NCBI RefSeq assembly: GCF_030013205.1
Contig: NZ_CP122649.1
DNA: 64,000 bases
Strand: one strand, 5' to 3'
From: Escherichia coli
GTDB taxonomy: Bacteria; Pseudomonadota; Gammaproteobacteria; Enterobacterales; Enterobacteriaceae
Part shown: positions 9,001 to 15,000 of the stretch, in pieces
Position numbering within the stretch: the stretch's first letter is position 1
Layout: every line of letters starts with the position of its first letter
Position numbers: made by a program

Positions 9001-12000
9001 CGTCAAAACTTGCATTGATTTTACAATTTTACAACGTTCTTACTGCCCTATATGTTTTACGGTACTGTACTCTTGGCACCGTTACATGTAAGCCTTCCAT
9101 TACCTTCTTCAACCAAACCTAGCCTAATTTACATCCTTCCAGCTGTTTCCTTCTCTGCTTCTTTTACTCGAATGTTTTGCCCCTTGCTGACGTTTCCGGC
9201 AGCACACAGTCCGAATGCTGGAGCCTCCAAATTACTTTTTACTTCTTTTGTTTCGGTTTCGCGAAAATAGGTCTCTTATCTGAAAAATGGATCGTTAGAG
9301 ATTTGTATACTGTTTAAAACAAAGGAGTCACTATGCCTGCCACTACAATCCTGAGCAATAACCCTGTGAATTCGGTCTTCTCTAATGACAATAGCCATTT
9401 CACATACCGGCATATTGATTTCAGTATTGAGCTACTGCTTTCTTCAGGAACTGACTCACAACTGGAATATCTGTTTCTCAAACCGGCGGCTGAAGTAAAG
9501 ATCGATTTACAGCGCCGTTTAGCTAGTGGGGAACGTTACGTTACAACCGAGAGTTGTGACAATTTTAGCGAAGTTGATGGCTGCATGGGACACGATTGCT
9601 GAGGACTTTATAACGGCAGGCGTCCGATTTAATACAACACGAGACACTATCACCTAATGATGACTGAATCGTTCTTTGACTGGGTTGTGTATTGCATCAC
9701 AGGCGTAATACTGGCATCTGCGTTCCTCGAAGGAAAAAGAACCCGTTTTCCGGCTGCATTTTTTTACGGAAGCATTGTGCTGCTGGTCGTTTTGATAGTG
9801 GCCGGTGCCCTCAACTGGTGGTTCTACCGTTCTAAATTCGGCTCAGTTGTCGTTATTTTTGCCGCGACAACGCTGTTAATGACCCGATTCAGATTGGTTA
9901 TTTATGCGTTCAGGTTTCGGACGCTGGTGGCAGATCTCCAATCACATGTAGCCAAGGGATTCAGGATAATCCTTGTCTTACCCGAAAATGAAGACGAGAA
10001 GACCGTTTTGCTTAGCAAATTGTCGAAAGTGATACATTCTGGGACGTTGTTTTATACCCGAACAGCTCTGGGTCCATATTCTGGGGATCTCCTGCATGCT
10101 CTGGGACAAAAGCACCGAAATGGCGAGGGCTATCTGCTTCTTTGTGAGCAACAACTTCCGGCTCGAACCTGGCTAAGCACTGTAGAAAACGGTCAACCAG
10201 AGAAGTCTATTGCAGTTAATTTTCATTCGATCCCTGATATGGAGTGATACCCCTATGAGCAATACAGATTCACAGACCGTACCAGCTGATGCCCTGTGTG
10301 AAAACAGTTCTCAGGTGAAAATTCAGCTAAGTCGAAGCGCCTCACGAGCATTGACGACGGCGAAAGAAATTCTTGAAACCCGAGGGCTGGTATCCGTATC
10401 CACTGAAGACCTTGTTCAGGCCTGTCTCGAAGAAAATCAGCCACTCGACCTGGCAAGTATCTATCTTGAGCACCGGCTAAAACAGAAGGGAACCAGTATC
10501 TGTGAATTTTAGTGTTTTCCAACCTATTGGGGAAATTCCGGAATGTGTTTATATAGCTGTAAGTAAAGCACTCTACAGGTAAATAATGAAAAGCAAAATT
10601 CACTCTTCAGGAACGTCCGGCACGAAACGAGTACTTAAAACGGATATTGCGTTGCCTCTGCTTTGTTGGGTGTTCACCAGTCCATTCAGTAACTGGACTG
10701 ATAAGTTTTTTACCGGCACAGAAGTGCCGGAGGGCTCGCTGCCGGGTCTAGAACAGGCGCCTGAGGCTATCTTCCGATTTGTGCTCAATGACGAAGGTTT
10801 TGATGTTGGTTTTGACGCGGTGGGAATGGATCTCTGTTGTTTCTCTATCCCGCTTTCGACGATGCCCACAAAGAATCTGGACGACGAAGAGACGTTGTCG
10901 AGGCTTACCGGCGACGTGATACACGGCGTCCTGCTTTCGCTTCCGGAGTACATTGAAATGCCAGACAGGCTGGTCTATCAGCTAACTGATGAGGTCATGG
11001 CGTTCAATTCACACTGTGGCAACGGAATTCTACATGGATGGACGACGGCTCAAGAGTTGTGGCGAAACGAGATCCTGCCACGCACCACTATTTTGATGCA
11101 GCAGACATCAGTCATTCACTGAGTTCCGGGGGCTCTGGATGAAAAAGCGACTTTACCTTCTTGAATGGAAACTTCGTGAGACAAGAGCCTGGTTAGGATG
11201 GATGGTGTTCTGGATTATCATCAGTTTTATGTTTTTATCAGCGATGTTCATGACAGGTCATTTGTTAAACAAAGTTGTCCTCCAGCCCGTTTGGCTGTGT
11301 ATCTGGTCTTTACCCTGGCTGGGCTTCTTGTTGAAGGTACGCGTGACCGAAATGGATAAAGGGCTCGTGAATACACTTCAGCTCGGAGATCTGCCGGTTT
11401 TCCGCTGGAGTCGTTCTGTAGTTCCTGGCACCTGGTCTGTTGACAGAATTAATGGACGCTACCGGTTGAACCGGATTGGAACGGATGGTTTGACGGTACA
11501 CTATCCGTGGCGCCTGTACTATCAGCCTTTGTTCCTGACACCGGATAAGCAGATTTCTGATATTAACGGACGTGAACATGAACGAAAATTCTGACGCAGT
11601 AGTGAGTGCCGCTACTTCCTGCCTGCTGTATGTGCGTGAAATCGAAAGGTCAGGCCCCGGTGAAATGCCGGTGTCATATTCAAATGAGCTTATCCAGAGA
11701 TGGCTTAGTTCGGCTGAACGTCGTAATTTGCATTCCCGCCACAGCTTGCGTTCGATTCGTACAATTCTGAAGCACGCAAGGAAGAGCCGTCAGCCTGATT
11801 TTTAGAGCGTGATGCATTTGCTGGTGGAAGGGAAGGGTGTAATCCCGGATGTTTCAGTATCGGATTTGGGCAATGTGCAGAACATACGTAATGAACTGAT
11901 TGGTCTGGGTTGGTGGGTGAAGTTTGGTGTAAAGCAGGACTGGCAGCGCATCAATCTGCAACGCCAGCCGGTCAGTTTTGGCCTTTTGAATGACCTTAAT

Positions 12001-15000
12001 CGTTGTTTTCGGCATGACGGTCAGCAGGTTGAACCTCTGCCACTTTATACAACCGGCAATCCCGGGGAATTGCGGAAGGTGCTGTAAAAGTACAACTACC
12101 GGCTGCATATCGACTCTTCAGAAGTCGTTGAAGACGTAACGGTGTTGCGCTGCTTTATTGAAACCGGAGTGATGAATGGCCAGTGAAGATTTACTCTTTT
12201 ACCGTGACCGGATTCTGGAGCGAATTGAAAAGCTCAGATCCTTTCTGAATGACCATCAGCCGGTGATGGCCGAGCTGATGACTGTGGGGACCGTCACACG
12301 ACACGAAGAGCGGTTGAAAGAGGTGAACCCCATCGAGGTGAGTACTATTTCAGATGCCTCCGTGGATGAAATTATCCGTGTTATTCAGGATTTCTGTATC
12401 GATGACATTGATGTACTCAGCAGGAATTCGACGAAAGTGACAACCAAATACCCGGGTTTGATTATTGTTCCTGAGGGTGCCGAACAGCTGAGCGGAATTA
12501 TTTGCGATATAAATGATGCCAAAAGTGACTTTGCCTCTGCAATGAAAAGGGTGAATTCGGAGAAACACATCCGGTTTAAGGAAGTTCACCGTAAGCTTCC
12601 CGGTCTGGTGACTGCGCATTCCACTCGCAAAATTCTGTTTGTGGAAGAACAGCTCAAAAAAGTTACTTTTGCCTGGCGGCTAAACCGAAACCAGGTAAAA
12701 ACAAACGCAAGTGATCTCATCGCGATGCTGGATAAGCGTCGTTTAGTAGCGGTCAAATCGCCCGTGACAACTGACCTGACAGTGGTGGCGAACATCGATA
12801 GAGCGAAGGCATTACTGGAAAGAAAAGTACTGAGAGACGGCGAAGGGTATCGCCTTTGTCGAACCAATACCTTCCCGGTTCCGATAGCGCATTTGTTCAC
12901 ATACCGGCCTGAAGGCAAGGAGCGTGGAAGTAGCAAATATGCCGAGACTGATTACAAGGTGGTGAAAGCCTCATTACCCATTTTTGGCGTCGGACAAAAG
13001 CCAACAATTAAAAGACTTCAGGACTGGGTGCCAGCGCAGGATGAAGCACTGTCCAATGGTCGAAGGAGCAACCATAGCTACACGGAACTTGTACCCGGTG
13101 CAGATCTTGGCATTTTCATTATGAGAAAGGTCTGAGGAGAAAAGCATGCAATGGATTTCCACGACCAGCCAGAAACTTGATGAGAGACTTTATCGTGTCT
13201 GTGTCTGGGTGAAAAAATACCATGAGGATGCCATCAACCGTGTTGTGTTGACGGTTGATCTCAGTAAGGCCCGCCATGACCCGATAGAGGACCAGGTACG
13301 GGCCGAGTTACTGTGTGGGCATTATTTTCTGATGCGGAAAGAGAACAACGCAAAATCGGCGCCAGCGGATCAGAACTTTGAATTTTTGCCTGACGGCCGC
13401 AACCTGAGCTGGCAGACGTCGACACCGGGGCTTCAGCACCTTCTCCTGAACAGCAATGTACCTGAGTCCCTTAGGCCCCTGGCTGATTACATTCAGATGC
13501 GTCTGGCCAAGCTGACCATGGTCCCGATGTCGGGAACCATCATGAAAGCCGCACTGGAAGACAGCATCAGCTGGGTAAAAGTGGATCTGCGATACTACTG
13601 GCAGTATGAACTGGTTAATTCCCATCTGGGGCCTGTTCAGGTAACTCATAAGGCGCTTGTGCGATTCGGGAGGCTGGCAAAACACGATGAAAACGCTAGT
13701 GCAATTCGAATGCTTCGCCAGCGGTTGTCATCACCGTTTATTCAGGAATTTGAGATGCCTGGGGAGGAACTGAAGCGCAAGCAGAAGATCATGAATACCG
13801 TTGATGTGAAAATGCTTTTCCACACACATTATCCGGGCCAGAAATTACTGCTGGCCCGATATGCTAATGGTTGGGTGCTGGTGGATTGTTTCCTGTTCCA
13901 CCATATCAAACCCAAAAAGAAGGCGAAAAACAAAACCAAAGCGGGTAAATCAGAAACTCAAAATATCAAATCGACGGGGAGTGAGGATCATGGAACTGGG
14001 CATTATGGTGTGCATCGTGTTGTTACTCTCACTGGCAGCGGTGTGGATCAGTAACAAGACGGTCGGATTGCTGGAAATCCATTACTTTAAGCGGCCGCTG
14101 AGCATGGAGTATGCAGCCTGGCTGCGTGTGATGTGTGCGGGTTTGCTATTTATTTTTATTCAGATGGTCCCGGCATTCACGTTTCTGTATACCCTGAAGC
14201 TGGTGGCACTGTTAAATCTGGGCGTGCAGACGATGAAGCTAAACGGGGTTTATAAATTTAAACGCACCGGGATGATGCCGCCGAAAGACGCCCCTCATGA
14301 TCTTGGCCGCTTTAATCCATTTCGAAAGAAGTAATCCTCATTAGCGCCCGCAGGGGCGCTACTCATCCAGCGCCTCACGCATGAACTTCGTCATCGCTTT
14401 CTTACCTGCGTCAATGTTACGGATATAGCGGGAAACCATTTCTGGATTGCTCCAGTTACCCATCTCCATGATCTGCAAGTGCGTGTACCCGGCATTAGCA
14501 AGTTCGATGGCGCCGCCAACCCTAACGCTGTGACCAGTCCAGCATCGGGTGCCCGCTTCCTGCGGATGAAGTTCATCCCAAAACGCTTCAAAGGCCCGGA
14601 GCAATGTGTTTTTACTGAGCATACCCTCATCATCGACAATAATGGGCTTTCCATTTTTCCCGATCGGGGGACGGGTAGGTCGGTAAGGCATATTATGATT
14701 TTTCAGCAGCGTATTGATCTCATTCCCTTTGCTCCGGAGACCCCATCCAGGGGGCATATATCCGCTGTCCTGATAGTTAACTGCCTGGAAGAGATAATCC
14801 TTCGGATGGCTTTGCTGGTCCCTTTTGACCATATCCATCAGCCTGATTAGGGTGGCAGTGAGATGAGGGGTCAGATGATAGGTAAGCAGGGTACTGACAG
14901 TGGATTTTGTCCGGTACACCGTCAGGGTAAAACTGCCTGTCTGTTCATTCAGCACAAGGTCCTGCATCCGAATGCGCCGAAGTTCTGCTGAGCGCAACAG

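Follow-up and report, generated by a model that had tools for sequence, protein, structure and literature searches.

What is the function of a tightly packed gene cluster when almost none of its products resembles a characterized protein? This question is raised by a 64,000-nucleotide stretch of Escherichia coli DNA (the window; NCBI RefSeq assembly GCF_030013205.1, contig NZ_CP122649.1) in which ten open reading frames (ORFs) lie on the same strand at positions 9333-14334 and converge with a tyrosine recombinase gene. An earlier note, made from the sequence alone, described a ten-gene, translationally coupled operon that lacks any recognizable motif, ends at a perfect palindrome and might encode a surface or envelope-associated system, possibly with a role in transfer, exclusion or defence. 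We find instead that the "ten-gene operon" is a conserved backbone operon of the IncHI (R27-type) resistance plasmids with nine ancestral genes. Its eighth ORF encodes a divergent Tus-family protein, and the locus as a whole may mark the place where replication of these plasmids ends.

Two of the genes carry recognizable domains. ORF 8 (12176-13135, plus strand) encodes a basic 319-aa protein that matches the Tus (DNA replication terminus site-binding) family in Pfam (PF05472, 7.3e-19) across residues 15-195, and ORFs 6 and 7 together correspond to DUF2913, as set out below. The ORF 8 product also matches PDB entry 1ECR (6e-5) and NCBIfam NF002810 (5.6e-14), in the latter case with 52 bits relative to an equivalog cut-off of 323 bits. 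Judged from these profile matches, its assignment to the Tus family is solid. An alignment that includes E. coli Tus (alignment A6) has invariant residues at K89, F140, H144, R232 and P233, while G149 is present in seven of eight sequences and I79 (or Val) in six of eight. Positions I79, F140, H144 and G149 reportedly make up the pocket that captures C(6) in the locked E. coli Tus-Ter complex. By these alignments, ORF 8 encodes a divergent, plasmid-specific Tus that keeps the residues of the cytosine-lock pocket, and their retention argues for a polar fork barrier over a mere DNA binder.

A second line of inquiry concerns the site at which such a protein might act. Exact matches to the core, 18-mers with up to three mismatches and a position weight matrix built from the ten E. 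coli sites TerA-J (real sites score 21.9-31.1 bits) were all used to look for E. coli-type Ter sites, and none was found in the window, in any of the related loci, on the complete IncHI1 plasmid or in 50 kb of IncHI2 DNA. The core GTTGTAAC matches the window twice, both times within coding sequence, where 1.6 matches are expected by chance. As the plasmid has no E. coli-type Ter, the host Tus is without a target there, and the plasmid Tus must recognize another sequence if it binds specifically at all. It is conceivable that this sequence is a divergent Ter-like site of its own. The presence of tus on IncHI2 plasmids has been noted in the literature, and one IncHI2 paper mentions "a potential ter site" without details; we found no Ter-like site in the 50 kb of IncHI2 DNA examined.

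The cluster that contains this gene is widespread. The 6.7 kb between window positions 9000 and 15700 are 100% identical to many IncHI1 plasmids of 190-300 kb from Salmonella, E. coli, Klebsiella and Enterobacter, among them tet(X4) plasmids. Plasmid pHCM1 is identical over the stretch compared, and R27, in which the cluster corresponds to about R0184-R0193, is 99.7% identical and encodes the same proteins. Altogether, 1421 plasmid records match the cluster: 222 at 99% identity or above, 63 at 80-90% and 1134 at ~67%, the last class being IncHI2 plasmids such as pHNSHP45-2. RefSeq annotates nine coding sequences here, eight of them as "hypothetical" and one as "DNA replication terminus site-binding protein". 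On the 3' side these are followed by the convergent tyrosine recombinase, then Hha, then a RepFIA replicon flanked by IS1. On the 5' side and on the same strand lie the Tra2 transfer genes and then genes for an AAA ATPase, DUF3150, VWA and Toprim/DUF7146 protein and five tandem genes of ~300 codons. The nine-gene order with its convergent integrase, and usually with Hha, recurs in IncHI2, in Photorhabdus and in five metagenomic or other lineages, with protein identities that fall to 30-45%. Synteny is retained in relatives at 30-60% protein identity, and order, spacing and overlaps persist across a divergence deep enough to saturate synonymous sites. The comparison of gene neighbourhoods across plasmids that the earlier note had proposed bears out the structural part of its reading, and it shows one conserved, co-oriented cluster.

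The ORFs are genes under purifying selection. Measured against five diverged homologous loci, the ratio of nonsynonymous to synonymous substitution rates (dN/dS) is 0.06-0.2 for every gene, with dS near or past saturation. Published microarray data for R27 (Gibert et al. 2020, PMC7366339, Tables S3 and S4) record signals of 540-3700 units for each of the consecutive ORFs R0183-R0192, whether at 25 or at 37 C. Temperature does not regulate them, and an htdA mutation derepresses all of them 2-10-fold, but only at 25 C. The mapping of R numbers to genes is ambiguous by one ORF, and these values are consequently read for the ORF block rather than for each gene. That most of the ORFs might not be translated, which would have spoken against an operon, is therefore not what is seen: the block is expressed and its genes are under selection.

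All ten ORFs named in the note are present, but two of them do not represent separate genes. ORF 6 (11572/11578-11805) and ORF 7 (11809/11812-12087) are in the same frame and align to an intact 202-aa homologue on an 87%-identical Enterobacter plasmid, in which the stop codon TAG at 11803-11805 is AAG and the stop codon TAA at 12085-12087 is GAA. The frame of the intact homologue extends to overlap the tus start. By this alignment, ORFs 6 and 7 are pieces of one gene that has been cut by two in-frame nonsense mutations, and with its dead 3' remnant the disrupted gene covers 11572-12186. Nine genes therefore made up the ancestral operon. The apparent 88-nt "gap" ahead of tus consists of dead coding sequence, since the frame once reached tus. 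Both stops are also present in R27 and pHCM1. An intact gene of 202-217 aa occurs in six other lineages, and the gene is missing from IncHI2. The DUF2913 profile (PF11140) matches seven of seven members at E<=0.1 and four of seven at E<=0.001, with a best value of 1.9e-9, and precomputed DUF2913 matches exist in two of the related loci (L008 and L012). Its loss from IncHI2 and its disruption in the R27/pHCM1 lineage, of which the window is a member, show that this gene is dispensable.

The cluster is tightly packed, co-oriented and bounded by a strong upstream terminator and a convergent hairpin. With products numbered by ORF, 54 nt separate P1 and P2, 7 nt P2 and P3, 73 nt P3 and P4, and 16 nt P4 and P5; P5 overlaps P6 by 23 nt; 3 nt separate P6 and P7, 88 nt P7 and tus, and 10 nt tus and P9; and P9 overlaps P10 by 65 nt. 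The junctions are thus as short or overlapping as had been claimed, with the small correction that ORF 3 starts at 10255 and not at 10256. An intrinsic terminator of the preceding gene (8964-8991, plus strand; 12-bp stem, 4-nt loop and T-run) delimits the transcription unit on its 5' side and is also conserved at five further loci. A scan against Rfam gave only sub-threshold matches, every one of them triggered by this terminator.

Two short sequence elements may control transcription of the operon. The 13-nt element TTTGTATACTGTT (9302-9314, plus strand) is located 19-31 nt upstream of the P1 start and is identical in the eight fetched loci that include the upstream region, which represent seven independent lineages, while the remainder of the ~400-bp spacer is unalignable. 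It is single-copy on the 190-kb plasmid. Two distant loci (L011 and L012) have TATAAT at the same position, and we therefore read TTTGTATACTGTT as the -10 region of the operon (TATACT), possibly with an overlapping operator. The same element was also considered as a Ter-like operator. It is asymmetric, contains TTGTA[T]ACT, has G at the equivalent of position 6 in five of six loci and occupies a place like that of TerB, which lies 11 nt upstream of E. coli tus. This minority reading is weakened by the plain TATAAT of L011 and L012 and by the occurrence of only one copy per plasmid. The second element is a conserved AT-rich motif, TGTGTTTATATA (10544-10555, plus strand), with eight invariant positions across eight loci. 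It is within the spacer between P3 and P4, which is present in every lineage with a length of 64-74 nt. If this motif is an internal promoter, then P1-P3 and P4-P10 would form two separate units.

Convergent with the operon in every lineage examined is the tyrosine recombinase gene (14359-15549, minus strand), whose reported length of 396 aa holds from a GTG start; the RefSeq ATG gives 393 aa. Its product matches phage P1 Cre in phmmer (6e-23) and BLASTP (26% identity, 2e-26), and R173, K201, H289, R292, W315 and Y324 align to identical residues. As far as the alignment goes, the recombinase is Cre-like with all of the catalytic R-K-H-R-W-Y residues. The two genes meet at a G+C-rich hairpin, TAGCGCCCGCAGGGGCGCTA (14343-14362), with an 8-bp stem and a 4-nt loop, and the recombinase stop codon is within its 3' arm. 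This is the sequence that had been taken for a perfect 20-bp palindrome, but its loop, GCAG, is non-palindromic, and neither strand has a U-tract. The GCGCCC/GGGCGC stem is kept with variable loops across IncHI1, IncHI2 and Photorhabdus and in L003, L004 and L009, while more distant loci have other hairpins in a longer spacer. It is an ordinary convergent-gene hairpin. We rejected it as a recombination site, given that the spacer of an 8-4-8 arrangement is too short and that only the stem is kept, among close lineages, and as a canonical terminator for want of a U-tract.

The location of this junction on the plasmid is itself suggestive. Gene orientation and cumulative GC skew were determined on a complete 190-kb plasmid (NZ_CP059284.1). 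Genes run clockwise from ~148 kb through 0, including the AC transfer operon, par and Tra2, to the operon end at 42.4 kb; from ~147 kb down to the recombinase the direction is counter-clockwise. Two co-oriented arms therefore meet at the operon/recombinase junction, which is the convergence point of gene orientation. The genes for the initiators RepHI1B (156.5 kb) and RepHI1A (174.3 kb) are near the divergence point, opposite the operon end. If the inserted RepFIA and resistance DNA is left out of account, cumulative GC skew increases along the first arm and decreases along the second, and the maximum is within this inserted DNA beside the locus. IncHI2 plasmids have the same upstream co-orientation. 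By analogy, the locus resembles the terminus of a small chromosome, with tus and a recombinase that would resolve dimers.

The explanation that we favour, although the case for it is about evenly balanced, is that the operon is a plasmid terminus and maintenance module that combines fork arrest by Tus at a non-canonical site, dimer resolution by the Cre-like recombinase and a set of lineage-specific partners. A Tus monomer would bind an asymmetric site on the plasmid and, through the cytosine-flip lock, arrest replication forks in a polar fashion. Such arrest would fix the termination of RepHI-driven theta replication at the locus where the co-oriented arms converge, and the adjoining recombinase could resolve dimers there, an arrangement like that of Tus/Ter and dif/Xer at the E. 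coli terminus. The other eight proteins may serve to anchor the terminus complex or to process it; they include P1 with its possible zinc site, P3, P4, the inner-membrane proteins P2, P5 and P10, and P9 with its RNase H-like fold. What the data show is the identity and synteny of the cluster, its selection and expression, the membership of the ORF 8 product in the Tus family, the protein folds and the location on the plasmid; a fork-arresting activity, the site that is bound, dimer resolution and any functional link between Tus and its neighbours are steps that we infer. A more ambitious version, in which all nine genes form one membrane-tethered "terminus complex" where a Tus with a non-canonical recognition site, P9 and the anchors P2, P5 and P10 couple fork arrest to Cre-like dimer resolution, would make this operon the ancestral context of the stand-alone enterobacterial Tus that was later domesticated. 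We regard it as distinctly unlikely.

Several observations weigh against a terminus module. R198 of E. coli Tus is not conserved in the alignment, the Pfam match is restricted to the N-terminal two thirds of the protein with a C-terminal third that aligns weakly, and the NF002810 score is far under its cut-off. The Ter matrix gives at most 14.1 bits over the whole 190-kb IncHI1 plasmid and at most 15.1 bits over the 50 kb of IncHI2 DNA, neither of which represents an E. coli-type Ter. No lox-like repeat (inverted 11-13-bp arms with a 6-8-bp spacer) is present at window positions 14250-16300. GC skew and gene orientation do not provide an argument independent of transcription, and inserted DNA blurs the picture. 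For eight of the nine proteins there is no hint of function, and what would connect them to termination is synteny and coupling. The first catalytic Asp of RNase H-like nucleases is missing from P9, and we found no experiment on this locus in the searchable literature.

The partners of Tus, all encoded on the plus strand, are for the most part orphans. P1 (9333-9602; 89 aa, acidic) is an exception in that the ~65 aa at its C-terminus are shared with a broader family of small proteins from phages and plasmids (phrog_21034), for which Pfam has no model. This domain also occurs at the N-termini of larger phage proteins, and its invariant residues H27, C75, C84 and H87 could form a zinc site. P2 (9657-10247; 196 aa) has three N-terminal hydrophobic segments and a C-terminal domain of ~110 aa, P5 (11139-11594; 151 aa) has a hairpin of two hydrophobic segments followed by a domain of ~85 aa, and each represents an orphan family. 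P10 (13990-14334; 114 aa) is a small membrane protein with two to three hydrophobic segments and a basic C-terminus. Hydropathy thus agrees with the earlier count of at least three small membrane proteins. The distribution of flanking positive charges suggests that the soluble domains of all three are cytoplasmic. P3 (10255-10512; 85 aa) and P4 (10586-11122; 178 aa) are acidic and soluble. Sequence searches find only a few distant relatives of P3, and P4 is an orphan family whose AlphaFold2 model is confident and has no structural relative in the PDB.

An exhaustive HMMER profile search of 1.84 billion representatives with the seven concatenated proteins gave 122 matches, almost all of them cluster members or fragments. 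P2, P4, P5, P9 and P10 have no detectable relatives outside the cluster in this set, the exceptions being P1 and, marginally, P3. Likewise, P1-P5, P9 and P10 match nothing in Pfam, NCBIfam, PHROGs, PADLOC or the PDB apart from the P1 family and the few P3 relatives. These searches agree with the earlier view of an operon whose products mostly have no known function.

P9 (13146-14054; 302 aa, basic) is the best conserved gene of the operon. Residues 1-254 are predicted to adopt an RNase H-like fold and a second alpha/beta domain, and a disordered Lys-rich tail follows. The full-length fold is shared with SXT/R391 s073 and related proteins of ~245 aa (Foldseek probability 1.0, E 1e-15 to 1e-9), and both proteins are encoded in accessory DNA of MOBH/MPF-F elements. 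However, HMMER detects no sequence similarity between s073 and P9, s073 has no Tus neighbour, and SXT s073 is known to be dispensable for transfer. Compared with the RNase H-like superfamily (RNase H1, RuvC and integrase cores), P9 has an invariant Ile-Ser-Thr in place of the catalytic Asp of strand 1 and no conserved acidic residue in strand 4. An active RNase H-type nuclease was considered and set aside on account of this missing Asp and the lack of a DEDD-type acidic active site, and P9 is probably not a canonical metal-dependent nuclease. We also considered P9 as a second Tus, and no similarity was found.

The proteins of the cluster might instead have no common function. Under this hypothesis they are unrelated, co-transcribed backbone genes held together by descent, with a Tus-like protein re-purposed as a DNA binder or regulator that acts, for example, on the 13-nt element or on the 13-bp palindrome AAAAGTWACTTTT that is scattered over the plasmid. 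The absence of a canonical Ter, the dispensability of the DUF2913 gene in IncHI2 and R27, the putative internal promoter before P4 and the membership of P1 in a phage-wide family unrelated to the other products are all compatible with it. E. coli Tus autoregulates through TerB, an invariant asymmetric element is found at the equivalent place here, and its TTGTA[T]ACT resembles the Ter core TTGTAACT. Yet order, spacing and overlaps are preserved beyond dS saturation, and the conserved residues of the C(6)-lock pocket are relevant only to polar fork arrest. The most distant loci have a plain TATAAT instead of the 13-nt element, and a palindrome is an unlikely target for a monomeric, asymmetric binder. 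We judge this explanation unlikely, but not strikingly so.

The envelope-associated role that was first proposed, an inner-membrane system for conjugative transfer, entry or surface exclusion or anti-phage defence, appears quite improbable. In its favour, the nine products include three small membrane proteins, the cluster comes after the Tra2 transfer genes and shares their strand, it is derepressed like most R27 genes in the hyper-conjugative htdA mutant, and P10 has a marginal match to the EexR/EexS exclusion proteins (E 0.3). However, no operon product matches a type IV secretion, entry exclusion (Eex) or PADLOC family better than E 0.01-0.3; there is no significant PADLOC, Pfam, NCBIfam or PHROG match to secretion, exclusion or defence families; and none of the products could be assigned to a known conjugation or partition family. 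No ORF has a charged and then hydrophobic leader ahead of a large soluble domain, so that with the apparently cytoplasmic domains of P2, P5 and P10 none of the products looks secreted, although no dedicated signal-peptide or lipobox predictor was run. Entry exclusion in IncHI1 has already been attributed to EexA/EexB of the Z operon. Unlike the tra operons, the cluster is not expressed more strongly at the transfer-permissive temperature of 25 C, the SXT structural relative of P9 is not needed for transfer, and the central gene is a Tus homologue. An even less probable alternative is a leading region whose genes, expressed early in the recipient, serve establishment or anti-defence. It would accommodate the many small acidic orphans (P1, P3 and P4), the phage-related family of P1 and the upstream Toprim/DUF7146, VWA and AAA ATPase genes that recall the traN-traF accessory block of SXT/IncC elements. 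But the relaxase and mobI genes, and hence oriT, are ~75 kb away, where a separate block of small genes beside them looks like the true leading region. The cluster has no anti-restriction, ssb or psiB families, and its ORFs are expressed constitutively in established cells.

The surroundings of the putative terminus module have features of their own. The 13-bp near-palindrome AAAAGTWACTTTT occurs at eight window sites (471-482, 4224-4236, 7814-7825, 12658-12670, 19652-19664, 27345-27357, 52030-52042 and 53544-53556), where 0.01 are expected. The copy at 12658-12670 is within tus, on the codons for K-K-V-T-F, and another is just upstream of the gene at 19804-20877. On the 190-kb IncHI1 plasmid, a scan of both strands finds 30 exact copies of the 12-mer AAAAGTAACTTT compared with 0.1 expected. 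Copies of AAAAGTAACTTT/AAAAGTWACTTTT are found in genes and spacers without strand polarity and are absent from inserted resistance DNA, and the palindrome is common to IncHI1, IncHI2 and the most distant relatives. It looks like an operator or a parS-type site of a dimeric plasmid protein, comparable to the KorB sites of RK2, which are also 13 bp long. No paper in the searchable literature gives AAAAGTWACTTTT in the context of a plasmid site.

Directly 5' of the operon, window positions 3897-8920 contain five tandem same-strand genes of 292-318 codons that are conserved in all related loci and have no NCBIfam match. They do not represent five tandem paralogues, as detectable relationships are limited to the last two (28% identity, E 1e-38) and to the second and third (E 4e-8). 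Further upstream, on the downstream side of trhI (window 1-3819; 22-31 kb in the L002 plasmid record), are the AAA ATPase, DUF3150, VWA and Toprim/DUF7146 genes, a block that recalls the accessory block of SXT/R391 and IncC with its cobS-like, VWA-like and s073 genes. In R27, the genes that directly follow trhI (R0204-R0002) belong to those with the strongest induction at 25 C. On the other side, a RepFIA-type repE replicon (16274-19394) is located between two IS1 copies directly beside hha and the recombinase. At this position no RepFIA replicon is present in IncHI2 or in the distant loci, and it is therefore an insertion into the terminus-like region. The gene after Hha (19804-20877; 357 aa), whose homologues carry Pfam CoiA_N, is syntenic with the recombinase-Hha pair in most lineages. 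One distant copy of the whole operon (L005, GCA_002230475.1 contig NLPQ01000051.1, 268-5185) apparently has many frameshifts, such that each gene appears as several tblastn pieces in different frames. This could be due to assembly error or to decay of the copy, and the 13-nt element upstream of it remains intact.

Among the major vehicles of multidrug, mcr-1 and tet(X4) resistance are the IncHI plasmids, whose backbone is mostly uncharacterized. On these plasmids tus is never alone. It occurs in a deeply conserved operon with eight orphan proteins and a Cre-like neighbour, at a convergence point and without an E. coli-type Ter. If the Tus homologue arrests forks at a new type of site, then it would extend the Tus-Ter paradigm and could provide both an orthogonal fork-barrier tool and a targetable maintenance function. 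If it does not, it would represent a case of a Tus fold that has been re-used for another DNA transaction. Both the sequence and the annotation of tus became public with the R27 and R478 genomes. We did not find earlier descriptions of the nine-gene architecture and the depth of its conservation, the division of the DUF2913 gene in two, the lack of canonical Ter, the preservation of the lock pocket, the s073-like RNase H fold of P9, the Cre-like recombinase next door or the terminus-like position.

Several known systems invite comparison with this operon. Plasmid-borne "mobile" tus genes have been recognized and discussed, and chromosomal tus has been proposed to be domesticated from plasmid genes (Galli et al. 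2019, Sci Rep 9:8315). In the accessible portion of that paper, the IncHI tus is one of the plasmid tus genes considered, and tus is treated alone, with no description of its operon context, the missing canonical Ter or the Cre-like neighbour. The recombinase shares a full-length alignment and all six catalytic residues with Cre of phage P1, which resolves dimers of the P1 plasmid prophage. It differs in its 26% identity, in an insertion of ~50 aa and in having no lox-like 13-8-13 site nearby.

The closest parallel is E. coli Tus-Ter. The plasmid protein has only ~18-23% identity to its E. coli homologue, does not keep R198 and is encoded by a plasmid without a GTTGTAAC-type Ter. Its gene is also within a nine-gene operon whose eight other members have no chromosomal counterparts. 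Nevertheless, both proteins belong to PF05472, with K89, F140, H144 and R232 invariant and I79 and G149 mostly kept. Both genes are located in a terminus-like region of their replicon, and a conserved asymmetric element just 5' of the plasmid transcription unit parallels TerB. A different arrangement is found on plasmids R6K and R1/R100, which carry canonical Ter sites and use the host Tus, whereas IncHI plasmids encode their own Tus and have no canonical Ter. Polar fork barriers on plasmids control the mode of replication and limit multimers.

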